This document shows positions 8,322 to 46,903 of a stretch of 64,000 nucleotides of DNA, in pieces. The notes under the pieces are model-generated. The model saw only the letters and a program-made list of their open reading frames with translations, was not told where the DNA came from and made no database searches. The DNA is from Amoebidium appalachense (taxonomy: Eukaryota; Protista; Ichthyosporea). The translations under genes and the position numbers were made by a program. The stretch covers positions 6,066,708 through 6,130,707 of the forward strand of contig CAVNZM010000017.1 in the NCBI GenBank assembly GCA_963693365.1, read 5' to 3'. The number at the start of each line of letters is the position of its first letter. Position 1 is the stretch's first letter.

Positions 8322-8808
8322 TATTTTATTGCATAGGTATTAGTTGATGGTGTGATCATGATGCGCCACATTCCTCATGAAAGTGCACTTCTTGAAAGTG
8401 AACTTCCCCTTGCACCTCTTGATTGGGTAATTATCATGTCCTCTTTCTCACCGCATGTGCCTCGCTGTACACTGACCGGCTCGTTTTCTTGACTTTCAGT
8501 TTAAACTTTCACCCCCCTGCACTGCACTCTCACGCCATGCCACGAGAGCATGCACTTTCTCGCCGTGTCCTTCTACTTCCTTCCAAAACACCCCTTTATT
8601 TCCTTTTTGCCGTTTGAGAGACAAGACACACATTCACGCATTCTCCCCCTTATATATCTCGCTTGGCAGGGTTTGTTTAGTCCCCACGCGGGGCCAACCT
8701 CCTTTCCAAGAGCAACCCTGTTGTTTCCTCGTGGAGCCAAAAGAAAGGAGAGCGAGAGGAAGGGATCGGTTCAGGGGTGTGTATACACCCACCAAAAAAC
8801 AACCGAAA

Positions 8809-9593
8809 ATGGGTATGGTGGTGATAGAGCAAAATGTGACCGATTTCTTTAACGGTCACCAGGACCGTTTCTTCTTCATCGTGATGGTCTTTGATCTCAT
8901 GTATCCCATCGTGGCCATGGTTCAAGCAAAAATGATGGGCGCCTACCCAGGAAGAAGATTTAGGCAAACATTCGCCGACGCAACCTCAATCTATGCACAC
9001 ATCATTACTGGTTTTCTCTCGATTTACGGGTTGAGCGCGGTGTTTTTGGCCGAGAGATACGGACCGGAAAACTGTATGGACGACGCGAAGCCGTTTGTGC
9101 AGTTCATGGGTGTGTGCATGTTGATACACAGTATCACGTCGTTCTATATGCTACCCATTGTCCACGGCGAGAAGATTATCACACAGCCCCTCTATGCCGG
9201 CCAGATCTGCATCAACACTGTTGACGCCATCAACGTAAGTATGCACACACGTTGTGTGTACATGGCTGTGTTTTGCGTTATGCAACGGAGTTAGATGTCG
9301 ATTCCCTTCTTGTGGTTTTGCCGTCCTGCGTCTTTCACCTCATTAAACCCCAATACACCACGAGACGGTCTGTTGTAGCACTATTTTCCCTGTTTATTGC
9401 ACACCTTCATGCGACAACGCTCGTTTGCCTTTAGCAGCTAGATGGCATCACCACTTGCACTTGACAGAGCAAACACCCATTCTTGGGGTAAATTGAACAT
9501 GCACTTACCACTTCGATTTACAACAACGCCTACTTTGCCAAGATCACTAGACTGGGGTCTTATTGAGCATGGCTTTTTCCCTTTGCCTTCCAA

Positions 9594-9633
<40 letters not shown>

Positions 9634-10272
9634 AAAAAACCACCTACCCACCCACCCCACCTCCCACACCTACTCGTGTTTACTCACTTACTCTTTTCTA
9701 TCCATAGGCTATCCGTGATCCCACCTTCAACAACGCCATGCTACTGTATGGAGCCGTGAACGCATTCGTGTTCGTCCGCATGTTCTACATGACATTGGTG
9801 GCATACACGTACATTGACCGCAAGCTTCTCTACACGTTTGCTATTACCGCATCGTTCATCAGTCCCGTGCTTTCCGGGCATGATATGATGTGGTTGACCA
9901 TGTATGGTTTCCCCGCCATCTACGGAGTGATTGTGTTCATATACCGTTCGATACCAAGGGCGGAGACGTTTGCAAACATGCGAGAGAATCTGATGCAGGT
10001 ATGTTGAAGCGTGGCCCTGTGTCCTAGTGTCACCACGTACGTTAGTTTTGTCAATTACTATCAGTGTGGCTTCTGCTTTTTGTGACCTTCTTAGGTCATT
10101 TTTCGTGTCTGTTTTGTCTTTTTTAGCTTTTAGTGACCGTGGTCGTCAAATCACCGGCTGCACCACTCTTAGGAAGTTGAGTTTTTAGGGTGTTGCAGTT
10201 TGCCATTCTTTTTTTTTTTTTTTTTCCTTCTCTTTCTTTTTTTCTTTTCTTTTTCTTTTTTTTTTTTTTTTT

Positions 10273-10303
<31 letters not shown>

Positions 10304-11288
10304 GGGGGAGGGGGGGGGAATGGGGGAAGGGGGGGAGGTAGTACAGGGAGTGGGGGAAAAAAAAATGGGGGGGGGGGGGGGGGGGGGTTCTGTATTTGTC
10401 GATCATAGAGCTCCAACTCTCATGAGAATGCCATCTATCAGATACGGAGCACTCGTGTTTGCCCTGTAAGCACGTACACACGCTATAGGTGGTGCCCGCA
10501 CATTCACCCGCACTCCCATGCCAAGAACTACGTAGACATTTGCATATTTTTATTCATTCTTCTTGTTTTGAACCACCATGCTCTTACTTTTTAATATAGT
10601 CTTATAAATTTAGAACTTATTCCTACTTTTTTCTAGTTTGATAAATATAGAACCGGACGCTTGTACACGCAATCATAAGCAATCACACATGCCCCGTGCT
10701 CCCCCCCTCCCCTCCCCCCCCCCCCCCCCCTCCCCCCCCCCCAAACATGTAAACATGCGCATTTAGCCTAAATGATTTGCACGGGTCTACCAACGTTCCA
10801 CATCAAGTAACCAAATTATCCCAGCCTGCCCCATATTATCATTCCCACCCCCATGTCCCAGCTCCCACCCCTTCAACCGTTTTACGCTCACACTTGTTAC
10901 CCCCCTCCCCTACCCCCCCTACCCCCCCAAACGCACACAAACCGCCACTCTTCCTGGTTTAATAGGTGATCTACATAGCAATCGCGTCCCCTAGATATAT
11001 TTAAGTACTGTGACATTGATACAAAGCCTTTTAACCAATCAGACACCGGATGGTGGCAAGAAGAGAATTGATGTTCCGACCCCACCCCCTACGGCCATGG
11101 TGTATGATATTGGGGAGGATTTGGGCAGCGACATAAATACGGCGCCTGGTGGTGATCCGGCCGAACAATCCCCTTGGGCCCCTCATGATCGCATTGGAGA
11201 TGACACGGACAGTATTCTGAGCAATCAGCCGGTGGTGACGGCACAGGTATGTGAGTACGTGTGTGTGTACGTGTGTGTGTGTGTGTAC

Positions 11289-11319
<31 letters not shown>

Positions 11320-11459
11320 TGTGTGTATGTTAATGTGTGTGCTGTGTGTGTGCATGTATGGTGGTGTGTGTGTGTGGTTGTAGCGTGTGTGTGCACAGTG
11401 TGTGTTTAACGGATGGTGGTTATAACAACAGAGGCTATAGTGTGTCTATAAACGGGACG

Positions 11460-11490
<31 letters not shown>

Positions 11491-11936
11491 GGGAGGGGGG
11501 GGAGGGGGGGATAGCAAGACAGTGTTTCGAGGGAGAAAGGACATCCAGCCGGGGTCATGCAAACACGATGGAGGGGGTGGGAGGGGGCAGGGGAAATAAT
11601 GTAGCTTATGGTTTCAGTGGAATCAGAGAGGTAGGCACAGGTTGTTGCACGAATACCTACACTAGCACACATGTGGTGTCATTAGTGTGAACATCGTGTT
11701 TTGTATAGAGATACAGAGATCTTTGCTATGTGTTGTTGGACCCTCCCCTCCCCTCCCTCCTCCACCCCCCCCCCCCCCCCCCCCCCAACACACACACACA
11801 CACTACCCTCATGGCTCAGCACTGCGCTGCTCTGCGCTACTTTACTTTGAGCCACACACAACAACACACACGCGGACACGGGTGCGCACGCCCGCTCGCG
11901 CGCACACGCACACACACACACACACACCATGTCTTC

Positions 11937-11972
<36 letters not shown>

Positions 11973-13824
11973 CCCCGCCCCCAACACACACACACATACA
12001 CACATTCTTTCCCCCAATGACCCCCCATGCACACCCCTCAACTATACGCCCAATTTTTTCACTGTCTTGTCTTCCCATCCCCACCATGATTGCAGAAACC
12101 CCCCGGAGCAGGAATTTACGACGGCCCCAACCACTATGGACCCCGCCCAATTTTCGGGAAGCCGGCCACCCGTTGCACTCTGGGAGCCGCAATTTTCTTT
12201 GGGATGATGACTATTGCTTTCATGGTGTCAACTATCACTCTGGCCATAAAGGATGTGGAGGATGGAAAATGCAGGGGGGACTATAGCGACCTGACTACTA
12301 AGGTATGGGGGTGAAGGGGCGGGGGGGGGAGGGGTTCAATGGGTTTTTGGAGTGAAATTTGCGTTGTGTGAAGTATGGCGGGATATGTATGTTCTTAGCT
12401 TTTTGTTTTTGGTAAAGGGGAGGGGGGCGGGTGGAGGAGGAGGGGAGAGAGGGGTTTGGGGGGGGGGGGGGGGGGACGTGGGAGGGAATGCAGGGGATCA
12501 TTTCAAAGCACAGATGCGTGCGTAGAAGTCGTTCTATACATTAGGTTGCCTACTGTTGTTGATTGGATTTGGACACGCATACATGCACACACAACACATG
12601 GTGCGCGCGGACTCGCTAGCTGACACCATCACCCATTTATACATGTTCCCGCATGCAACACATACACATACACACACACACACACAAACACGCACGCACA
12701 CACACAGGACCCCGTTGACTTCATCGGCATTGCCAACAACATGAGCGAGACTGACCGCGCCGCACGTGCTCAAGCTCTTGCAGCCAACCAGGTAAAGAGT
12801 TTAAATTCTTAAATTTTAGTTTTTAAATTCATGTCCCTTTCCGACCACGTAAACCCCCCGTGAGCATGAGTTTGTGTACATTTGATTGAATAATGGCTTA
12901 TATGTGCACTTTGTCAGAGCCCCTGTTTTCATAGCTATGCTTTCTATGGTGTGTTTAAGGCCCTCCGCTTTCTCCAACCGTATGCCGATTTTTCTTTCTT
13001 GTACGTTCTTTCTTTCTTTCTCTCTTATTTTTTTTGTTTTGTTTTCCCCTTCACATCTCACCATACTTTGTGACGTGTTAGCCATTCATTATTCTTGTTA
13101 AACATACCCAAAATGATACGGGTTATAAGTAAACCAGCAACACTAATTACCCAAAATGATACGGGTTATAAGTAAACCAGCAACACTAATTACCCAAAAT
13201 GATACGGGTTATAAGTAAACCAGCAACACTTTATAAGTAAACCAGCAACACTAATTACCCAAAATGATAAGGGTTATAAGTAAACCAGCAACACTAATTA
13301 CCCAAAATGATACGGGTTATAAGTAAACCAGCAACACTAATGTTACCATCATCAATAGTACCAGTACGAACAATCAAGAGCACTTGTAAGCTTCATTACT
13401 CTAGCATCAACGTCTTTCTGACACAAGACCCCCTCCCCCCTCATCCCCCCCCCCCCCCCCCCCCCCCGGGGCCCTCCCCCTACCCTACTCCCCCACTCCC
13501 CCCCCCCCCCCCCCCCCCCCCTTTCTGCGCCATGCAGGTTCTGTACCAGTTCCACCCCCGCAACCTTACAGCATTCGCAAACAAAAAAGGAAAAACTTTC
13601 CTCTTTGGTGGTGCCGGTGGTCCCGTGGGAATGGCGATGCGCGAGTTGGACAAACAGAAATTCTTTGTTGAAGAGCTTCTACCCCATCAATTGGTCTACA
13701 TTGAGCCTGCCGTGAACGCCACTTTGATGAATATCCCGAAGCTCAAGTTTGATAAGTTGACGGACTATGATCAGCTGTTCCAGTTTGGATTCCCTATGCC
13801 TAAGCAGGTGTGTGTGTGTGTGTA

Positions 13825-13864
<40 letters not shown>

Positions 13865-14146
13865 ATGTGTGTGTGTTCTTTTTTTTCTCTTTTCTTTTCT
13901 TCTCTTTTTTCTTTCTTTCGTTTGGGGGGGGGGGGGGGGGGGGGGGGATTGTTGTTGTGGGTAGAGGTGGGGGTGGGAGGGAAAATGACGTGAATGGGTG
14001 TAAGGTTGAGATGGAATTTGGGGAGGGAGGCCAGGGGGGAAGGTGGGGGGAGGGAGGGGGGTGTGTGGTGATTTTAGGGTGTGGCTATTGATATGGAACT
14101 TGGGATGGGGCTTGGGTGAATAAGCGGGTGGTGGTGGTAGGGTGGT

Positions 14147-14199
<53 letters not shown>

Positions 14200-14449
14200 A
14201 TGAGGGGGGGGGGGGGGGGGGGGGGGGGGCTTGGCAAGGAGGTGAGAGGAGATGTGTAACGGTTAGGCCCATAAGAGGGCGGGATTAGGGGGGACGGATG
14301 GGAGGGGAGGAGTGGGGGATAGGCAAATGACTTGCAATACGTACACATATGAATATATGCATACGTACTAACACACAGTCGGACACACACACATCAACCC
14401 ACACACATTTGTACACGCACCTGAACACACACACATTTCCACAAACACA

Positions 14450-14518
<69 letters not shown>

Positions 14519-14557
14519 CCCTCCCCCCCCCCACACACACACACAAACACACGTACA

Positions 14558-14592
<35 letters not shown>

Positions 14593-14631
14593 CCCCCCCC
14601 CCCCACACACACACACACACGTACACGTACA

Positions 14632-14678
<47 letters not shown>

Positions 14679-15457
14679 CCCCCCCCCCCCCCCCCACACA
14701 CACACACGCACACACACACACGCCAGGACGCAAACGGCATTCTCAACGACGACCAATTTGCCTACGAGCAAACCACCATCACAGCCGGGTTCATTGAGAA
14801 GTGCTACTACATGCCCAAGCTCATGCAGGGCAAGTTAACGGAGGAGCAGGTTAAGAACCTGCTACCGCCTAATGTGGTCTCTCTGGCAGATGCCATGTCT
14901 AAGGGTCTGGTTTATCAGGTGGGTCTTTAACTCCATGTGTCTATGGGTCTGGTGTACCAGGTGTGTCTTTCCCAGGTGTGTCTTTAACTCCTTGTGTCTA
15001 AGGTTCTGGTGTACCAGGTGTGTCTTTAACTCCTTGTGTCTAAGGTTCTGGTGTACCAGGTGTGTCTTTAACTTCTTGTGTCTAAGGGTCTGGTGTACCA
15101 GGTGTGTCTTTAACTCCCTGTGTCCCCGTGTGAGGCTTCCACGGTGTAGTACTTGGGGGAGGGGGGGCTCATAATCTTCAGAGGGTGTTGACCCTTGTGC
15201 CAAGTCAGTGTTCTTTGGAGGATATTATTGGTCATCCAGATGATTACTAACCAATCAAATGTCTCCCTTGCAGACGGATCTGTCGTTCATCGATGTGATT
15301 GGCCACCACAACCAAACCGCCAATCTGCTGCTGTCACCCAATTTGGGCCCAAGAACCAAATACACCATCGGCACCCTGGGCCTATTTATAGCTCACAATG
15401 AGACAGACAAGAACGACCCTAAGAAGTTTATTAGGTATGTGTCATTTCTTCCCTCCC

Positions 15458-15488
<31 letters not shown>

Positions 15489-15571
15489 AATAAATAAATA
15501 AAAAAAAATAAAAAATAGAATAAAATAATAAAATAATGAAATAAAAAATCATTCCCTCCCCTCCCCCTGCC

Positions 15572-15603
<32 letters not shown>

Positions 15604-15691
15604 AAATAAAATAAAAAATAAATAGAATAAAATAATAAAATAATAAATAAAAAATCATTCCCTCCCCTCCCCTGCCTCCTCCCTCCCCCCC

Positions 15692-15722
<31 letters not shown>

Positions 15723-16130
15723 AAAAAAAAACAGAAAAGAAAGGAAAAGAAAAGAAAAGAAAAACAAAGGGGAAACTGGAGGAAATCAGAGAGGGGAAGG
15801 GGGGAGAAAACGATACACACACACAGGCATGCGCACACCAACACATAATCCCACACATACAAACACCTCCCATGAGCCATGACATGGTGACGCGGGGGAG
15901 AAAGAGCGAGGGAGAGGGGGGAGGGGAGGGGGGAGGGGGGAGGTTGGTTTGCATGGTAGTGCCCTGTTTACGCGGGTGGATCGGTTTTTATCCCTTACGC
16001 TGTTTGATTGGTTGCATGGGCCCACTGCTAAAGGGAATAAACCCTGTCGTGACCACCCCCGTACTCACCATCTGTCTCTCGCCTCCTTCTTCTCCTCCCC
16101 TTTCCCCCCAAAAAAACATGCACCCGTGCG

Positions 16131-16173
<43 letters not shown>

Positions 16174-16452
16174 CACCACATCCCTCCCCTCCCCCCCCAC
16201 CCGACCCCACACACACACGTACACGTACTAGGTCCAAGCTCAAGCCTCTTGCCATCTGGCTGGGCTCAGGCAGTGAGCAAGTGTTCACCCCCAACGACCA
16301 TGACGTGGAGTGGGTGGTGGCCAAGCTATACTTTGCTAACGGGGCTAAGACGGTGAGCCACGTGAGGCACGTCGTCATCAATCACTTCCTGCAGGTGTGT
16401 GTGTGTGTGTGTGTGTGGGTAGGTGGGTGTGTGTGTGGGTGTGTGAGTGTGT

Positions 16453-16491
<39 letters not shown>

Positions 16492-17278
16492 GTGTAATCC
16501 CTACTGCCCACCTTCTCTCCGTGCGGCATGACATATTCCCCTCCCCCCTCCCCCTATCTCTCTTAATCACTCAGTCACTTAGGTGCATACAGTCGTACAC
16601 ACACACACACTCTCTCTCTCTCCCTTCTCCCCCCCTCCCCCCCCCCCCCCCCCCCGGCCCTGCCCGCCCCCCTCACGCCTGTGGTTCCCTCTCTCTCTCT
16701 CCTCCTCCTCTCTCACCCCCCGCGCCCCCCCCAACAAACACAGGTGAACACATGTCTTTGCATATAACACACCTTCATGCACAAACACGAAGTATTCCTC
16801 CCTTCTCCCGACTGCCCCACCCTACACAACTCCCCTGCTGTTCATATTCCATCTTTCATGTGGTGTTTCTACATCCTGCTTTTTTTTTCGGACTAGAATT
16901 TTTTGAATGTTCACACATCCAGGAATTGGGAGTAGTGGGGGGAGGGGGGGGGGGGGGGGGGGGAGTATGTGACCAACAGGCCAACACGGCACCAATAGGA
17001 ATCTAATGTTATTTTTTATCACCAATTGGAATCTAATTATATTTTCATCAAGGAATCTGATTTTATATGTCCACCAATAGGAATCTAACATTACGCTTTT
17101 CCACCAATAGGAGCCCCAGCTTATTGCGTCGTTCCGTCAGCTTCCCGACACCCACCCCGTAAACCGCCTACTTGCCTATCACGGGCACTTGGGCATTGGC
17201 ATTGCCGAGTTCATTCAGACGTCATTCATGCTGCCAACACCAAACCAGGCTTTCTCGGTCGACCAGGTATGTAAATGC

Positions 17279-17345
<67 letters not shown>

Positions 17346-18352
17346 CCCACCACCACCACCATCACCACCCCTTTTCTTCCTCTGTTTTCCCTTGCCTGTG
17401 TTTTCGTTTTTTGTGATACCCGCATACTAAAGTACTTAGCACTCCCCTCCCCCCCCCCCCCCCCTCCAATCATACCCCTCGCACGCAAACATCCCCCCTC
17501 CCCCCCTTCCCCCCCCCCCCCCCCCCCCCCGGGGGCCTTTGCGCCTTCCCATGTTGTTTGTGCATGCATACCTGCATGCTTTTGCGCAGTTCATAGCAAA
17601 AAATAACGGGGCGATACACCCAAGAGACACACTTCACCCCATACAGTGCGCGCTCAAACACACTCAAGGCTAAACACATGCACGTAGCCACACGCAATGC
17701 ATATGTCTCTCTACTCACTTAACTTCCTGGTTTTCCTACCTCCTACCTTTTTTTAGACATACATATCTCAAATACCTACATAACTTTCTAATTTCAAAAC
17801 TCAATCGCACCTAATCACGTACTTGTTCACCAACCACATACAGGTTCTCGGTGTAGGTGGTGACGGTCTAGCCCGTCTTGCATCGCGCGAGTTTGAGATC
17901 TTCAACTATGAAGACCACGATCCCGAGCAGTATTACAAACTGCGTGATGTGCATGGGCTGCCCAACCACCACTATCGTGACGATAACCTCGGCCTGTTCT
18001 ACATCATTGAGAAGTTTGTTGAAAACTATCTATCGATCTACTACCCTGATGATGCGACCGTGAAGAACGACTTTGAGGTGGGTGTTAAATTTTTTCCCTC
18101 ACCCCCCCCTGTCGGGGGGAGGAGTTCTCTGTTTCCTCTCTCTCTCTTTTTTTTTTTTGGGGGGGGGGGGGGGGGGGAAAGCATGTAGACTTATAGCAGA
18201 GGTTTGCCTCCTGCACAAATGGAGTTCTCTGTTTCCTCTCTCTTTTTTTTTTTTGGGGGGGGGGGGGGGGGGGCATGTAGACTTATAGCAGAGGTTTGCC
18301 TCCGGTTTGCCTCCTGCACAAACATAAAGTCAAACTTCTGTGTTTTGCTTAC

Positions 18353-18389
<37 letters not shown>

Positions 18390-18940
18390 CCCCCCACCAC
18401 CACCACCACCACCAGCTCCAACAATGGTCGCAGGAGGTTGCCAGCATGCAGTACGGTCGGGTCAAGGGCTTCCCGGCCCGGATCGACACCTTCAAGAAAC
18501 TGGTTCGGATCTTGGCCCGTTACTGCTGGCGGAACACGGTGCACCACTCCTCCAACTCGGGTGAAAACGCATATGAATACCTTGCACACCCAGGCGCTAT
18601 GGTCTCTTCTCTGTACATGGCACCCCCCAAGGAAAAGGGTCAGGTGTCGTGGGAGGATCTGAAGAAGGCTCTGCCCTACCCTGAGGAGTCCGTGTATAAG
18701 ATGGGTGTGCTTAGAAACCTCAAGAGGAATATGAAGCCTGACCATGGTATGCTTCGTGCTTATGAAGCCGCCGGGTTGGGTGTTCGGGCTGAGAGGTTTG
18801 TGAGGCACTATCAGCAGGAGATGAAGACTTTCTCGGTGCAAGTGAAGGAGAGAATGCGAAAGCAAAAGGATGAGGGGTGGATCCCGGGCCCACCGTACGG
18901 TTTGGATCCTGAATATATTCCTTATTGGGGTTGGTTGTAA
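8809..18940 (+). CDS. Polytopic membrane domain-lipoxygenase fusion protein (about 970 aa, 12 exons)
   Basis: Exons 8809-9234, 9708-9998, 11043-11246, 12096-12302, 12708-12791, 13538-13807, 14727-14918, 15274-15434, 16232-16394, 17111-17266, 17844-18077 and 18416-18940 are all GT-AG and phase-compatible (2913 nt). LOX motifs: [83 protein letters not shown]-terminal [12 protein letters not shown]. The LOX call is strong; linkage of exons 1-2 to the rest is inferred. Confidence 0.85.
13104..13341. repeat. 43-bp minisatellite, about 5.5 copies, inside a lipoxygenase intron
   Basis: Unit ttacccaaaatgatacgggttataagtaaaccagcaacactaa, period 43 (13107, 13150, ...), with one partial copy. Confidence 0.92.
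14895..15120 (+). repeat. 42-bp tandem repeat derived from the exon 7/intron 7 junction of the lipoxygenase gene
   Basis: Unit ccttgtgtctaaggttctggtgtaccaggtgtgtctttaact (period 42 at 15001/15043) matches the exon end tgtctaagggtctggtttatcag plus the donor gtgggtctttaactcc. Confidence 0.88.
16990..17112 (+). repeat. ~30-bp tandem repeat containing the 3' splice site of lipoxygenase exon 10
   Basis: caccaat(a/t)ggaatctaa units start at 16990, 17020 and 17072; the last partial copy (17102) supplies the acceptor AG at 17109-17110. Confidence 0.8.
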
Positions 18941-20018: not shown

Positions 20019-23729
<3,711 letters not shown>

Positions 23730-27627: not shown

Positions 27628-28058
27628 GTATGGGTGTGAATGCACGCTTGCATGTGTGTGTTGGTTGAGTTTCTTGTGTTCAAGGTATTTCAGAAGAAGG
27701 GAACGAACGCTGAAAAAAAAACCATGGCCAAATAAGAGTAGAGCACAGCGAAGGAAAGGATAACGGCGGGGGGAAGGGGGGGGCGGGGGGAGGGGGGGGG
27801 GGAGTAGCTAATTATTAAGGGGGAGCAGAGGGGGAGTGGGCCACACGGAGGGCAGAGGGGGGGAGGGGGGAGGGGAGGGGGGAGGGGGGGAGGGGGGGGG
27901 GGGAGATTTGGCCAGGCACCTTCGAGGATGAGTGCGGTTTCTGTGTCCGTGTACGTCCAGGGGAACTCGCTCACGCCACAGCCCCACGTGCTCCACTTCT
28001 TGGCCTGGGCTACTACGTCCGCACTGGGCGTGGGGTCGACAGTGATGCCTTTGGCCAT
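25724..28058 (-). CDS. Small cupin, DUF861/EutQ-like (92 aa, 2 exons)
   Basis: Exons 28058-27920 and 25863-25724 join in phase 1: [92 protein letters not shown]. The WxC...FPWxY...E...ILEG...G..V.FP.G..C.W.V....KHY pattern is typical of this family. Confidence 0.92.
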
Positions 28059-29066
28059 GGTGTGTGAAAGGGAGGCAAGAAGGGGGTGTGGGTGCTGTAA
28101 GGTTGTGCTGTAGGTAGGATTTGCACGCTGTTGTATAGAGCTAGAGTGAGCCAATAAGGTCAGTGTATGTTATCGTAGCAAAGAGCTAATGAAGGAAACA
28201 TGACACGGAGAGTCTACAGTTGGGGATCGAGGAAGGCTGTTAACGTTGACGAAATGAAACGATACTGTATATGTACTACGGGTGTTACTTATACTAATGT
28301 ACATTGTGCGGCTGTAAGACATGAATGGTAGTACACACCAGTATTAGGACACCCCTGGACCAGAGGTAAACCATTTCCCTCAGGGCCCGTACACGAACAC
28401 GAAAACGGGACCCCTTTGTGAATTAGTACTAAATGCATGTTTTGTAGTAGGTTAGGCTTACACAGTTTATTAAATGTTATAAAGTGGAGTGGGAGCACTG
28501 CACCCCGTGTGAGTGTATGAGTTACTGCGTCTTTTAGCATGAGGTGTAGCAAGAACGAAGAAAAGAACAGTGATGATAACAGTGCCTCTCACTATGTGTT
28601 GTTGGGGATGGGTGATCACGATCTCCACCCAGTTCTACTACGTACGTTTATTTGGTTGGAAGTTCTGTATCGGGAAGTAACCTTCTAAGTGTTCTTACGA
28701 TACAGGATGCATCACCCCTTGAGTCTTAGACTACAATGTGTCAAATGTCTTTCTAGGACCTGAACAGCTAGTGCTTCTCCGCCTGAAGATCGTGAGTTGT
28801 CACGCGTGTGTGACAAGCCACGGTACAATCAGCAACTGTTGTTTTATAGAAACCGTTTGTATGCATATTCCCGCTTTTTTTGTGTTTTTTTTTTATTCCT
28901 ACATTTTTTGTGTTTTATTTTTTATGAAGCCTTATACATCTTGCTATATTTATGTTCCTTACACAGACCACATGCTTAGGATGTCAAGTTTTTTGCTCTA
29001 CAGTATGGTCTACTTTACAAATGTTATAAGTGATTATGAGAACTTTAAACGAAGAAAGTTGGCTCA

Positions 29067-29744: not shown

Positions 29745-30718
29745 CTCCCCAAATCCCTTCTCTCATCATCAGCTGCTGCTGCTGTCTTCCTTTTTCTCCC
29801 TTAGCCTTTGAATCTGAACACTGCTTTGATCGGTACCCACTTCGTTATTTCAGCCTGCTCTTCTTGATTGCCTCAGTTTTCGTTTTGATTTCTAAGCACT
29901 ACCCCCCCCCCCCCCCCCCCCCCCCCCCTCCCCCCCCCCCCGCGCCGGTCGTGAAGAAAACGCACGAACAAAGAAATTCTTCTTTCTGTTGATCCGGATT
30001 CTAGCGGTAATCCTTAGGAGGAGGTGGTGTGTGTGTGTGTGGGGGGGGGGGGGGTAGAACTAAAACAGGCAAAATCAAAAACCCAGATAATTTTCGCTAA
30101 ACAAAGCCTCATGTTCAAATATCTCATAGCATACACGCACCTGCGTACGTATCCAGTGGAAGTATGGAGCCACCCGTGCATAGACCCCCGGAAAGGCAGC
30201 CTGCCCACATCCATTGCCAAAGCTGACCACTCCAATCAGGTGCTTTCCGTCGGCGGAGACGAATGGACCACTGCCACGTATCACCCAAATACTGATTAGC
30301 AACCTTCCCTCCCCTTGTTCCTGATTATGTTTAGGTACACACAAACGCACAGATATACATGCACAAGAGTTCGAACACACGTGTGTGCGTGTGTAGACAT
30401 ACACACACACTCACACAGGCAGAACATTCCTTACTGGTCCATAATCACCCATACCCTATCATGTAAGCAAATTCGCCCAGAAATGCCTTACACAGTATCA
30501 GCTACATTTTCAAGCATAATTATACTTTTGCTGTCGTATTGTCGTTTTGCATGTTTGCTGATTTCCATACGACTTTGCCCTCCGAGCCAATTTAGCTCGT
30601 TGCCTCATTACTGTTCATGCCCTCCCGTACCCGTACTTTCTGTTCTCTCACCCTCCCCCCTCTCCCGCCCTGCTCCCCTTCCCCTGTCCGGTCCATTACC
30701 CCTCTTCCCACATAGAGT

Positions 30719-30755
<37 letters not shown>

Positions 30756-31549
30756 CCTTTCAGCCCCTAACCTCCCCTTTTTTTTTCCCTCTCTACCTCA
30801 CAAATCCCATCCGGCAAGTCCCCCCCCCCCCCCCCCTCCTCCTCTAAATTCTAACTCATGCTGCCCGATAAGCACTTATCAAATCAGCCGATTAGAATAT
30901 ATGCACTTACCCAGAATCGCCTTGGCAGGCATCGCGGCCACCCGTATGGACATCCCCTGCACACAGTTCGTTGCTTGTGATGGAGGAGCTGTTGCCGTAC
31001 GTCTTCTGGCACAGATCATTGTCGATGATGGGCACGTCCGTTTTGAGGAGGTAGGGTGAGCTCTCCCTCGTCGTGGTGTTAACTACTCCCCACCCGTACA
31101 CCCTGCACGTGCTTTTTAGTACGAGCTGATTGAATTCTTGGGCATTTGTTTTATATTGCTACTGTTACCGTAAGTTGGGGGGGAGGGGGAGGGGGGGGGG
31201 GGGAGGGGGGAGGGGGGGGAGGGGGACGGGTTCAGATGCGCAAAGAATGTGGACACTAACTTAGTAGGAAATAAGGGCAAGATCGTGTGACATCGGGACC
31301 CAGAAGGTGCTTGGGTTGGTCATATAGTGCATAAAAGGAAGCTCTGTATCATTTTGCTAAGACTTCCTATCTGGCTTTGTTTGTCGGTGTCATTGTCCTC
31401 TCATGCTCTCTTATCCCTCCTCTCTCCCCCCCCCCCTTTCCTTTTTCTCCTCCCACCGAGGCTAACATCACCATTGCTTGCTTAGGAGAATCACCGACAC
31501 ACACACTGTGCACACACACCCAAACACACACATGCACACACGCACACAC

Positions 31550-31584
<35 letters not shown>

Positions 31585-31617
31585 CGCACACATACGCACA
31601 CGCACACACACACACAC

Positions 31618-31648
<31 letters not shown>

Positions 31649-32250
31649 AGTCCTTCACCTTGCCATTTTGCCCGTTAGCTCATCCCCGCGCCTCCCTGTG
31701 CTTGGGCGGATGGAGTGGTTATCAACCGCAGTCTCGAGACTTACCAGACACAGGTCGGGGGACATGCCGTCCTTCTCTGCTAGTGGGGGGCTGGTTTTGT
31801 TGAACACTCGCAGAAGCTGCACCCATCCAATGAGTAAATAAAACCATCAATAAATGCCAATGTAATGTACTGTGTCTCTAGGCCCATCTTGATTTTAAGT
31901 GCATTCAGATATCTTGAGGATTTCTTACCTTTTTAGTTTTTCCGATCACCCCACCACGCGTGTTCCCAGATATAATCACTGGCTGAAAGAAGCTTCATGT
32001 ACACTAGCTAGTGTGTGGCATGTATGCACATGGAATGATTTTGGTGACGATAGGGTTGGGGGTGGAGGGTAGGGGTTGGTGTGGTTACCGGTGGGGGGTT
32101 GGTGGTGGTGTTTTGGGAGAAGGGAGGGATGCTCCCCCCCCCCCCCCCCCCCTCTCTCTCCCTCCTCCCCCTCCCTCCCCTCCCGTCCCCCCTCCCCTCT
32201 CCCTCCTCCACTCCGACCCTTCCCCCCCCCCCCGGGCCCCTCCCCGCCTC

Positions 32251-32294
<44 letters not shown>

Positions 32295-32406
32295 TCTCTT
32301 TCGTGTGCTCTTTTTTTGGTTTGCTGGGGGAAGAGGGGGGCAGGAGGGGTGATGGGGGGGTAGCAGGGGAAGGGCCCCCGGAGGGGGGGGGGAAGGGGAA
32401 GGGGAA

Positions 32407-32445
<39 letters not shown>

Positions 32446-32563
32446 ACACGTGAGGTAGAGGAGTACTAGTGGGGGGTGGGCCGGGGGTGGTGGGTGGGTG
32501 GATTTTAGGTGTGTGACGGTGTGGGTGGGTATGCACGTGAATGGTAATGCCTTTTTTTTTTTT

Positions 32564-32605
<42 letters not shown>

Positions 32606-32994
32606 GGCGGTGGTACCTGGAACTCCGTTATGTTACTCTGGTTGAGCCCTCCTATGGCTGCATGCAGGTAGAGAGGCCCAGGTACACCTTTGATGGTTTC
32701 AGCAAACTCCATGTCCCCGTCGAAAGGCTCGAGGCAGTGCCTCGCAGTGAGGATGTGCCGTGAAGAGATCAGACTGCCACCACATGCCGTTCTTGTGTGT
32801 TCATCGGTCAGAACATAGGCAAGATGTGTGTGTAAGAGCCCCTTGCTTGTTCTTTTCAAGTCAAGGCTTCAGGTGGTTTCTTTCTTTCGTGTTCTCTGGT
32901 CAAGCACGGTGCTTGTGTACGTTTGCCCGAACAAATAAAGTTGTTCCCTGCTCAAGGGAGAAAGAGAGGAGGGAGCATGTGTGTGTGTTTTTGT

Positions 32995-33048
<54 letters not shown>

Positions 33049-33239
33049 ATTGTGCAGAGTTCCAAGAATCTTGCGAGAATGTGAAATTCTCTCCCCAATC
33101 TCCAGATGGAAGAAGGGTAGCCCGGGGGAGAAAGGGGTGGGGGGTTGGGGGGGCGCTCATACTGGGATTTTTACGTTATATTCCCCCCCCTCCCCTCCTA
33201 CCCCCTCTTCACCCCCGAGCTCTCCTCTCCTCCTTCCCC

Positions 33240-33270
<31 letters not shown>

Positions 33271-33880
33271 CTCCCGGATCTCAACCCCGCCACACACACC
33301 CAAGATGCCACCCACCCAACCAACCAACCACCCTCGTGCGTGCGCACGCGCACACGCACACACACACACACACACACATACACACACACACACACACATA
33401 CACACTATAGCTAAGACACACAGACATACACTTGACACCAAAGATATCATCGTAAGGTCTTGATGCAACCACACAAATACCGGAGGCGTAAGGACAAGAC
33501 GTTGCTTGAACTTTTTATAATGGCGAAACCCCAAAGGGGAGGGGGAAACTTTACCTGCTTATGAACTTGTGGTCAAGCGATGCCAGTCGAAACGACACCA
33601 TCCAAGGGATGTTCTTGGTCACACGCTCTCCCCCAATTATCGTGGGCTCAAAGCCTTCAAGCTCGTCATCTGTGCGAGGGTGAGTGGAGTCTGAAGGGGC
33701 AAAGAAGTCTTTACGCACAAGAGCTTTCCAAACATTCGTTTGGGGTGCCAGCCAAGGTGACGTTGTGTTTTCTATGCTGGACAGGGTCGGGTAGGCAAGG
33801 CATGTTGAAAGCAGACTTGACGACAGGAAGATAAGCAGTAGAAACTCTGACCAGAAACTGAATCGGCACCGTGTTTCCAT
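29067..33880 (-). CDS. Secreted trypsin-like (S1A) serine protease zymogen
   Basis: Exons 33880-33555, 32791-32617, 31816-31659, 31102-30911, 30270-30141 and a probable last exon 29192-29067. Signal peptide, propeptide, IIGG, PWMVS, CGGSLI, LTARHC (His), DLCLVSL (Asp), [13 protein letters not shown] (Ser; Asp189 gives trypsin specificity), GVVSFG.GC..PGVYARV. The last exon is less certain; read-through to the stop at 30075 is the alternative. Confidence 0.9.
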
Positions 33881-37546: not shown

Positions 37547-43048
<5,502 letters not shown>

Positions 43049-45040: not shown

Positions 45041-46903
45041 CTACCACTCATCAGGTACCTTCGCGCTGGTGGGCTCATACGAGGCCGTGATCGTCTCTCC
45101 ATACGCCGTCCTTTGCCGGGTGAACTTCCTCTGGTCCGCAACAAACGGGTTAGGGCGCGGGTTTCTGATTCTCGTGTTGCGCCGAATTACATTGCGCATC
45201 GTTGACTGGGGCCCAAGGATGGAGCGACGGAGGTTGTGCACCTCAGACACTTTGCACGAGCACCACGACCGATCGTCGCACTGAGACGGACGCGGGGACA
45301 GGTTGCACACCGAGTTGCACCAATCGGGAGAGGCAAAAGGGTTGAGCGTTTGGCACACGTACTTTTCGCGGTCTGCGGCATCACCTACGTATTGCATGAG
45401 CCGCTGGCGATACCAAAGACGGTCCGAGCGCTGAATGCGTGAAAACTGAAGGAGGAGGCCGGCACGAAGCGTGGGGCCAACGCTTGCTCCCGGGATTTTG
45501 TCTTCGCTGAGCATACCGACGTATAGGTCGATATGGCTGACGTCATCACCATACATCTGCCTGAGACGATCCTGCAAGACGGGGTCTGACGTAATCTGGT
45601 TGATGCTTGTGATGGTGTCCCCCACAAGTATCTCGCGCACTTTAACGTATGAGGGGGTGTTGTAGTCACGTGCGCGCTGCACAGACAAAGCAACGAGGTC
45701 CATGGCGGGCTCGCCAGTTGGAAGCCCGCGGAAAAGATGGTTGCGTAAACACGTCGACACGTGCGTGTCGATACCCTCCATCTGTTGCAGCATCATGCCG
45801 GCAATAACGGGGTCTGGCCCGCCCAGCTGAGTGAACACACCGTGCGCACCAAAGTACGTGCTCTGTGTGGCGTTGGCTGGGTTGCACAGCGGCAACATGC
45901 CCTGCTGGCCTGGAAGCGGCCGCAGGTTCAACGGGTTGGCGAGGGTGAAGAAGTTGGGCACAGTACTGTGACCGAACCTCATGAAGCTGCCGTGGAAAAG
46001 GCGCATAAGCTGGCCGTTAACGGTCGGGTCATAAGGGGCCTCGCGGTAGTTTTCACCCAAAACGGCAGGCAGCCACTCCTGGTAGGTGATGTCCTGCAAC
46101 TCTGCCTCGATGATCACACGTGCTTCTTGGAAGATGCGCTCGGGGTCCCAGTTGGGGTTTTCACTGCGGATGAGCTCGGCAACATAGTTGTGTTCGCGAA
46201 ACATGAGCGTGTGCATGGACGCAAGCAGGGGGTTCTGCGAAACACGGTCGTCACCACTCTGATAGAGCGCCCGGTCGCCGATGGGCATCAGGTTACCCGC
46301 AATGGACGCCAGCAGCCAAGGCTTTTGTGGGTCACGCAGTTCCTGTGTGCGTTTTTGGGTGGAGCCGTAGACGATGGATCCGTCAATGTGTGAGCTGACG
46401 GTGTTAACTGCTGTGTTGTTTGCACTGCCATCCACACGAACGAAAAGCATCTGCGCACCGGGCGTGAAGTACTGATCGTCCTTGGGGACGGTGATGTTGA
46501 CTTGCGGGAGGCCCGGGCGTGCGATTGAAAGATCAAACACAAATGATATCTCGTGGTTGATATACTGGCCCCATGCAGGTACCATAGTGCTCAAACCACG
46601 AATGTCCGGTATAACATTGGTTGCATTCTGGTCGAAAACGGTGTTGCTTAGCAACCGCGTGTTTGGCACGGTCGGAGATTCGAACACTGCATCTGCGCGG
46701 GGGCCCGCAAGAAAAGGGATGGTGTCGTCATTGTTTGAGCCCCACTTTGGGTGGCGTAGGTTGTTAAGGTCACCTTCGGGTGTGCGGTACTTAACAAGAC
46801 TGTCGACCCCGTTGCTAGCGAGGAATGGGCATTGCGCATTCAATGTTTGCACGGCACTTAGTGCCATGAGCGTGGCACAGAGTGTGCTGGAAAACGGCGC
46901 CAT
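45041..46903 (-). CDS. Secreted heme peroxidase of the peroxidase-cyclooxygenase superfamily (animal-type), intronless, 620 aa
   Basis: Single ORF with signal peptide MAPFSSTLCATLMALSAVQTLNA. Motifs: YRTPEG.LNN..HPKWGS, PNTRLLSN, WGQYINHE (distal His), SHIDGSIVYGS, GDDRV (distal Arg), FREHN, FQEAR, QDITYQEWLP.VLG, RFGHS (proximal His), DLVALSVQRARD, IDLYVG, QF.R....DR.WY. Confidence 0.95.
   Translation of the reverse strand: MAPFSSTLCATLMALSAVQTLNAQCPFLASNGVDSLVKYRTPEGDLNNLRHPKWGSNNDDTIPFLAGPRADAVFESPTVPNTRLLSNTVFDQNATNVIPDIRGLSTMVPAWGQYINHEISFVFDLSIARPGLPQVNITVPKDDQYFTPGAQMLFVRVDGSANNTAVNTVSSHIDGSIVYGSTQKRTQELRDPQKPWLLASIAGNLMPIGDRALYQSGDDRVSQNPLLASMHTLMFREHNYVAELIRSENPNWDPERIFQEARVIIEAELQDITYQEWLPAVLGENYREAPYDPTVNGQLMRLFHGSFMRFGHSTVPNFFTLANPLNLRPLPGQQGMLPLCNPANATQSTYFGAHGVFTQLGGPDPVIAGMMLQQMEGIDTHVSTCLRNHLFRGLPTGEPAMDLVALSVQRARDYNTPSYVKVREILVGDTITSINQITSDPVLQDRLRQMYGDDVSHIDLYVGMLSEDKIPGASVGPTLRAGLLLQFSRIQRSDRLWYRQRLMQYVGDAADREKYVCQTLNPFASPDWCNSVCNLSPRPSQCDDRSWCSCKVSEVHNLRRSILGPQSTMRNVIRRNTRIRNPRPNPFVADQRKFTRQRTAYGETITASYEPTSAKVPDEW

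Follow-up and report, generated by a model that had tools for sequence, protein, structure and literature searches.

The 64,000-nucleotide stretch of the Amoebidium appalachense genome analyzed here (contig CAVNZM010000017.1, positions 6,066,708 to 6,130,707; referred to below as the window) contains a gene in which a membrane domain of seven predicted helices is joined to a lipoxygenase. The fusion is one real, expressed, spliced gene. The enzyme half is of a known kind, and the layout and the membrane partner appear to be undescribed in the open literature, searches of which turned up no membrane domain-lipoxygenase layout of this kind. The reading that we favor, tentatively, is that of one 970-amino-acid, eight-helix protein in which the lipoxygenase would make a hydroperoxide and a pocket in the seven-helix domain would convert it. 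If so, the protein would provide a membrane-embedded, one-protein route to lipid signals. The cited papers describe lipoxygenases that are soluble or peripheral and whose fused partners are soluble catalase-type domains. A lipoxygenase with eight predicted helices that is likely luminal or extracellular, is expressed, and is conserved across about 30% identity is a different design. The fusion also gives a handle on an unnamed membrane family of holozoans, chytrids, and algae that lacks a clear structural match.

Gene structure and transcripts

Joining the twelve exons by their coordinates (Table 1) yields 2913 nucleotides that encode 970 amino acids and a stop codon with no internal stops, and AG/GT splice ends are present at every junction. 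An earlier note on this DNA, made from the sequence alone, had proposed twelve phase-compatible exons giving one open reading frame of about 970 amino acids. This model held, and the sequence motifs that it quoted are all present in the spliced protein. The transcript data were contigs, rather than reads, from three runs (X1 to X3) of one sample in one study; the run type "RNA" was a guess by the metadata tool, which the GT-AG skips support. A 3799-nucleotide contig of X2 extends from 8618 to past 19100, spanning exon 1 to exon 12. Its displayed pieces on exons 1 to 7, 11, and 12 have no mismatches, and the gaps between the listed pieces (80, 7, 480, and 10 nucleotides) have the lengths required by the gene model. 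Exon 5 was seen directly in this contig, and the support for exons 8 to 10 in X2 consists of the 480-nucleotide length sum and the joint between exons 7 and 8 (14918/15274). In X1, a 1510-nucleotide contig extends from 8511 through exon 5, and the remainder is covered by another contig.

These contigs bear on the possibility that two adjacent genes were merged by read-through or misassembly. With intron 2 retained, translation would meet an in-frame TGA (10005-10007) after exon 2, an anchored lipoxygenase could begin at Met258 in exon 3, and the runs come from a single study and consist of contigs only. However, the GT-AG joint 9998/11043, for which the earlier note had advised a check with RNA, is present in X1 and X2 (two of the three runs, X3 having no contig on the gene), as is the joint 9234/9708. 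Contig depth in intron 2 past 9998 is zero, and the depth bin that includes the end of exon 2 is fully accounted for by its exon portion, so none of the contigs extends to the TGA, and transcripts ending there were not seen. Furthermore, a single contig runs from exon 1 through exon 12, and an independent fusion exists in the relative P0014. We consider a merger of two genes very improbable. Because contigs lose rare forms and cannot mark starts, a minor, separate lipoxygenase transcript beginning at Met258 might also be made.

Contigs of low depth (2.5-4.6) lie in intron 5 at 12966-13127 and 13240-13312, and the X1 assembly is interrupted where exon 5 ends. Retention of intron 5 would introduce a stop six codons on and give a lipoxygenase-less form resembling P0002, one of the relatives described below. 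The introns in the window are repeat-rich; tandem repeats with units of about 45 and 40 nucleotides were seen in the sequence at 13100-13340 and 14900-15110.

Lipoxygenase domain and predicted membrane topology

Hydropathy and alignment agree with the earlier description of a Pro/acidic linker followed by an eighth membrane helix and a complete lipoxygenase without a PLAT domain. The eighth helix has a hydropathy peak of 2.13, a hydrophobic helix is present at the equivalent place in P0014, P0002, and P0009, and the interval from this helix to the catalytic region leaves no room for a PLAT domain. Matches of the spliced model to three bacterial lipoxygenases (L006 to L008) have E values of 1e-18 to 2e-24; single exons are below the Pfam cut-off for PF00305 (E values in Table 1). 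One of the bacterial genes, on a Rhodococcus plasmid (L007:3138-6215), comes after an acyl-ACP thioesterase gene, with which it appears to form an operon. The metal ligands H658, H663, and H840, together with S844, are in register with the three bacterial enzymes and with P0014, which also has Ser at the Asn slot, and an alternative register for the third His/Asn slot pairs H839 with N843. PMC13059375 lists three His together with His, Asn, or Ser as lipoxygenase ligands, with a terminal Ile or, rarely, Val. The Pfam lipoxygenase match of P0014 (65 bits) is above the cut-off, and its best solved match is coral 8R-lipoxygenase (E 4e-29). The lipoxygenase half is probably enzymatically active.

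The membrane topology was predicted from sequons and charges. An N-terminal sequon is present in all four close proteins that have an N terminus (the window model, P0001, P0002, and P0014). The loop between helices 1 and 2 is basic (four Lys/Arg versus one Asp/Glu), and that between helices 2 and 3 is net acidic. The eighth helix is preceded by three Lys/Arg and no Asp/Glu and followed by three Lys/Arg and five Asp/Glu. Immediately after this helix the window protein and P0014 have a sequon in common (N387), and in P0014 an insertion following the helix has 14 Cys in residues 484-604. The sequon and charge patterns point to an outside N terminus, a linker in the cytosol, and, for the lipoxygenase, a luminal or extracellular position, which we regard as likely. 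They also suggest that the conserved pocket described below faces the cytosol.

The seven-helix domain and its possible roles

AlphaFold modeling of the relative P0019 with 24 sequences predicted seven helices (pLDDT 89, pTM 0.86), which map by alignment to residues of approximately 16-43, 58-85, 95-117, 122-145, 149-172, 180-197, and 202-227 of the window protein, in line with the earlier estimate of about seven hydrophobic N-terminal helices. Relatives were collected with phmmer, with exon 1 as the query, from 1.84 billion representative proteins. The search gave 26 matches, from which P0010 and P0026 were removed as repeat artefacts. The closest relative is a 100-amino-acid fragment from the ichthyosporean Ichthyophonus hoferi (84% identity), and the named sources of the 24 clusters examined are Salpingoeca kvevrii, Chlorokybus, two chytrids, Prymnesium, and Dinophysis. 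The membrane domain, judged by sequence similarity, belongs to a family that is widespread among eukaryotes (an ichthyosporean, a choanoflagellate, chytrids, and algae) and mostly lipoxygenase-free.

The sole lipoxygenase carrier among the 26 matches, P0014 (1101 amino acids), has the same layout as the window protein, to which it is 30.5% identical over 259 columns of the membrane domain (E 2e-30) and 29.6% identical over 510 columns of the lipoxygenase (E 4e-65). The segment just after the eighth helix, where the sequon is shared, also matches (score 41; 0 of 1000 shuffles). A shared layout at about 30% identity in both halves suggests that the fusion is old, its apparent conservation resting on these two full proteins. 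P0002, which its source marks as complete, and P0009 each comprise the seven-helix part, a linker, and the eighth helix and then end soon after. The four eighth-helix proteins group together (support, 100/99) in a tree of 27 rows, from which P0001 was dropped as too short and in which P0014 is a long branch.

Most members of the family (P0002-P0025 and L001-L005) are stand-alone or follow an N-terminal beta domain. Five of the 72 metagenome pattern matches (L001-L005) are algal-type loci in which no lipoxygenase frame was seen, and comparison of the close and algal-type groups indicates the same domain (hhalign probability 99.95, E 4e-38). The N-terminal domain of the algal-type members (about 230 amino acids) has no Pfam match and resembles acetoacetate decarboxylase in fold (Z 12.3, root mean square deviation [rmsd] 3.4, 191 aligned residues; Foldseek E 2e-5). 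By eye, a His-Thr-His motif recurs in this domain (L003:1268-2239, P0003, P0005, P0011, P0017, P0022, and P0024), and several algal-type members start with a signal-peptide-like stretch, which in algae could be a plastid signal. At one of the five loci (L001:1766-2923, - strand), a fatty acid desaturase gene (PF00487, E 2e-32) lies tail to tail with the seven-helix member, possibly by chance. Word-index protein searches returned 0 of 51 candidates for exon 1 among longer proteins and 0 of 408 for exon 12; with an alignment query the outcome was 0 of 7992 at lengths of 810-2310 only, in a search that overlooked P0014 and is hence insensitive. Pattern scans were likewise negative for viral contigs (0 of 7, 0 of 4, and 0 of 42 candidate stretches) and prokaryote genomes (0 of 10), and tblastn of P0019 against plasmids and phages gave no match.

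It is conceivable, if rather unlikely, that the membrane domain has a job of its own unrelated to oxylipins and that the fusion merely anchors or routes a signal-anchored lipoxygenase that may be weakly active or inactive. Consistent with this, 25 of the 26 matches are without a lipoxygenase, P0002 and P0009 end after the eighth helix, a long flexible linker lies between the two halves, the lipoxygenase motifs are atypical, and the low-depth intron-5 contigs could give rise to a form truncated ahead of the lipoxygenase. However, the fusion has been kept in two proteins that are only about 30% identical, the metal ligands are kept in both, and the eighth helix alone would be sufficient as an anchor.

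Conservation within the domain was evaluated with an alignment of 28 rows, from which ten near-duplicate or frameshifted proteins and two artefacts were excluded and in which three near-duplicate pairs were retained. Y32, H64, G68, G120, P127, Y129, F162, R166, and Y184 are invariant in all 26 relatives covering them, and D29, H107, T110, T125, N160, and T185 are found in 25 of the 26. Thus, two of the three intramembrane histidines highlighted in the earlier note (H64 and H107) are conserved, but the third, H119 in the VHG motif, is retained in just 3 of the 26 relatives aligned. H200, in the loop between helices 6 and 7, is retained by 5 of 24 rows, among them all four eighth-helix proteins. 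Across 25 rows, no residue of helix 7 is conserved. In helices 1 to 6, the conserved residues lie toward one side of the membrane, in its middle or cytosolic half under the predicted topology. This conserved His/Arg/Tyr set on six helices suggests a putative active site.

Sequence profiles of Pfam, NCBIfam, PHROGs, and the PDB gave no family match for the membrane domain. The MAPEG family (PF01124) matched none of 15 members at E values up to 1 and none of the 26 matches at E values up to 0.01, and the N-terminal part, a hydrophobic seven-helix bundle, has no match to the catalase Pfam domain. The seven-helix (7TM) family PF10192, suggested by an automatic UniRef name of P0027, was rejected since this protein matches no Pfam family at E values up to 1. 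A CREST hydrolase (PAQR or alkaline ceramidase), a pattern that has HxxxH in helix 7 plus an SxxxH motif, was rejected because of the lack of a conserved residue in that helix. Foldseek comparison of the P0019 model with the PDB gave a best E value of 0.38 and no clear solved match. In a wide fold search the best hit was an alpha-catenin bundle (Z 8.3) and the rest were generic; a second search reached Z 7.9, and the scores were of the generic helical-bundle sort. MAPEG, cytochrome b561, GOST, and rhodopsin did not stand out in these fold searches, which does not of itself prove a new fold. The only structure resembling the whole seven-helix domain is a viral predicted structure, G8DFK9 (530 amino acids; TM-score 0.57, rmsd 4.2 over 227 columns, E 0.022), which is a lead only, and the ESM Atlas gave weak leads only (0.77 for exon 1 and 0.81 to a mostly giant-virus cluster).

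These searches also bear on two further possibilities. One is that the domain might bind or import heme or a metal, with delivery of Fe or Mn to the luminal lipoxygenase as one example. His64, His107, Asp29, and Asn residues lie within the membrane, and the retention of H200 in all four eighth-helix proteins would fit such a role. However, Asp29 is lost in P0014 and His107 in P0009, the zinc transporter (ZnT and ZIP) rows in Foldseek were at chance (TM-score 0.30 or less), and the only two conserved His are on successive helices. Cytochrome b561-type proteins have four conserved intramembrane His, and a bis-His heme protein of this type was rejected. Overall, we regard metal or heme binding as improbable. 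A receptor or sensor for a lipid or oxylipin that signals via the cytosolic linker or switches the lipoxygenase is a still poorer prospect. The domain has seven helices, a predicted outside N terminus, and a long cytosolic linker, and GPCR-PIPK proteins show that seven-helix receptor-enzyme fusions exist (PMC12716839). However, no Pfam family of G-protein-coupled receptors (GPCRs) was matched by any of the 15 members scanned at E values up to 1, the conserved site is predicted to face the cytosol rather than the outside, and the linker is not conserved. GPCR chains aligned to the P0019 model with Z 5.3-6.2 and rmsd 3.5-6.0, covering residues up to about 190 of 254.

In the mechanism that we favor, the lipoxygenase likely lies on the ER/Golgi luminal or extracellular side and likely produces a fatty acid hydroperoxide. 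The seven-helix domain would extract this product from the membrane for conversion in its predicted cytosol-facing His/Arg/Tyr pocket, and the eighth helix would replace the PLAT domain as a membrane tether. Conversion is favored because of the invariant His/Arg/Tyr residues on six helices, the known catalase-lipoxygenase fusions, and the precedent of the luminal cyclooxygenase coupled to a cytosol-facing, intramembrane microsomal prostaglandin E (PGE) synthase. Catalase-lipoxygenase fusions convert their hydroperoxide product (PMC11719350). The coral allene oxide synthase-lipoxygenase offers a comparable logic, but in the window protein both parts would work within one membrane chain, and the partner is of no recognized family.

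A number of observations weigh against this mechanism. The lipoxygenase is divergent, with 22-24% identity to the bacterial enzymes. Its C terminus is in register but ends in Leu970 rather than Ile or Val (Val in P0014), which is atypical because the terminal ligands listed in PMC13059375 are Ile or, rarely, Val. The Coffa site, which is Ala or Gly according to PMC3669278, aligns to Ile701 (Leu in P0014), with a four-residue insertion adjacent that makes the register unsure. Taken together, the divergence, the Leu end, and the apparent Ile at the Coffa site indicate that the enzyme could be weak or altered. Sequons after the eighth helix are not enriched (5 versus 2.3 expected, p 0.08; 2 versus 4.4 in P0014), and P0014 and P0002 each have one sequon in the supposedly cytosolic linker. 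The eighth helix is conserved by position only, its sequence similarity being at chance (139, 163, and 718 of 1000 shuffles), and P0002 and P0009 end shortly after it. The putative pocket is deduced from alignment and helix order. P0014 has lost near-invariant polar residues (D29->S, N160->G, and N136->Q) and P0009 has H107->Q, changes that would be odd for strict catalysis. Algal-type members have the acetoacetate decarboxylase-like domain rather than a lipoxygenase, and the presence of a lipoxygenase in just 1 of the 26 matches implies that the basic job of the family needs none. A tight link between the two halves is made less likely by the polar losses in P0014 and by the many lipoxygenase-free members.

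An alternative explanation, which we consider unlikely, is that the seven-helix domain is a carrier. Its pocket would bind the fatty acid carboxylate and, in a FLAP-like way, hand substrate located in the cytosolic leaflet over to the lipoxygenase on the luminal side, or would return product. The conserved pocket and the enzyme are predicted to be on opposite sides of the membrane, Arg, Tyr, and His residues stay invariant with P0014 counted, such sets bind carboxylates in other lipid proteins, and in algal-type members the family is paired with a second enzyme-like domain. Against a carrier, there is no MAPEG or transporter sequence match, conservation does not extend through the whole membrane (helix 7 having no conserved residue), and free fatty acids cross membranes unaided. 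Our ordering of the explanations, which is itself tentative, places conversion of the hydroperoxide first, followed by a carrier, an anchor, metal or heme binding, a receptor, and, last, two merged genes.

A bolder form of the conversion hypothesis, for which the odds are low, is that the seven-helix domain represents a novel intramembrane class of oxylipin synthase whose fold the PDB lacks, and in which His/Asn and Tyr/Arg could rebuild a catalase-like heme or glutathione site in the bilayer, so that single-celled relatives of animals would make eicosanoid-like surface signals with one protein. If this were true, the protein would be the first integral-membrane, outward-facing lipoxygenase and would provide a function for a pan-eukaryotic family with a possible giant-virus branch. 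What the pocket does in the fusion bears on the existence of a new intramembrane lipid enzyme or carrier and on the oxylipins of close animal relatives.

Elsewhere in the window, one long frame at 45920-46867 (- strand), 27 kb from the lipoxygenase gene, encodes an animal heme peroxidase domain (PF03098, E 8e-65), a family that includes fatty acid dioxygenases. Two similar BTB/KCTD-type genes in opposite orientations, at about 22240-23705 (+) and 37598-39048 (-), are likely duplicates, and exons for a trypsin-like protease and a Cupin_3 protein lie at about 30078-33784 (-) and at 27906-28169 (-), respectively.

Table 1. Features of the lipoxygenase fusion gene, in window coordinates
Feature	Position	Strand	Residues	Content and basis
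5' untranslated region, at least this far	8511..8808	+		X1 contig begins at 8511 and X2 contig at 8618; true start not shown by contigs
Exon 1	8809..9234	+	1-142	Sequon N9; helices 1-4; D29, Y32, H64 (8998-9000), G68, H107 (9127-9129), G120, P127, Y129, N136
Exon 2	9708..9998	+	143-239	Helices 5-7; N160, F162, R166 (9777-9779), Y184, H200
Exon 3	11043..11246	+	240-307	Pro/acidic linker, predicted cytosolic
Exon 4	12096..12302	+	308-376	End of linker and eighth membrane helix, residues 337-358 (12183-12248)
Exon 5	12708..12791	+	377-404	Likely start of lipoxygenase region; sequon N387, common to P0014
Exon 6	13538..13807	+	405-494	Lipoxygenase; contig and alignment
Exon 7	14727..14918	+	495-558	Lipoxygenase; contig and alignment
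Exon 8	15274..15434	+	559-612	Lipoxygenase; joint 14918/15274 and alignment
Exon 9	16232..16394	+	612-666	Metal ligands H658 (16368-16370) and H663 (16383-16385); alignment
Exon 10	17111..17266	+	667-718	Coffa-equivalent I701, alignment uncertain; Pfam PF00305 E 0.014
Exon 11	17844..18077	+	719-796	Lipoxygenase; Pfam PF00305 E 3.6e-4
Exon 12	18416..18940	+	797-970 and stop	H840 (18545-18547), S844 in Asn slot, C-terminal L970; PDB manganese lipoxygenase match E 1.8e-4; alternative register H839/N843

Comparison with known systems

Relatives in the seven-helix family have the same domain, mostly without a lipoxygenase, and include no member of known function. The joining of a seven-helix domain to an enzyme or to a luminal beta domain is described for GPCR-PIPK and GOST proteins (PMC12716839). 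These proteins have no sequence match to the window protein, and the luminal domain of the algal-type relatives resembles acetoacetate decarboxylase, not GOLD. The likeness to MAPEG proteins (FLAP, LTC4 synthase, and microsomal PGE synthase-1) is confined to the proposed logic, in which a fatty acid oxygenase works beside a membrane partner whose polar site faces the cytosol. MAPEG proteins are separate four-helix trimers that work with 5-lipoxygenase or cyclooxygenase, and they have no Pfam or PDB-sequence match to the window family.

The PLAT-less manganese lipoxygenase (PDB 5fno) and the Nostoc, Rhodococcus, and Pantoea plasmid enzymes (L006-L008) have a barrel-free catalytic domain with ligands in register with those of the window protein. 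However, these fungal and bacterial lipoxygenases have no polytopic membrane domain, and the window protein, which is 22-24% identical, ends in Leu. In the coral allene oxide synthase-8R-lipoxygenase (PDB 3dy5 and 3fg1) and the cyanobacterial catalase-lipoxygenase, the lipoxygenase is likewise C-terminal with a partner in front. The partner in these fusions is a soluble, catalase-type heme domain, whereas that of the window protein is a seven-helix membrane domain. The window protein is also without a PLAT domain, and its lipoxygenase is predicted to be luminal.

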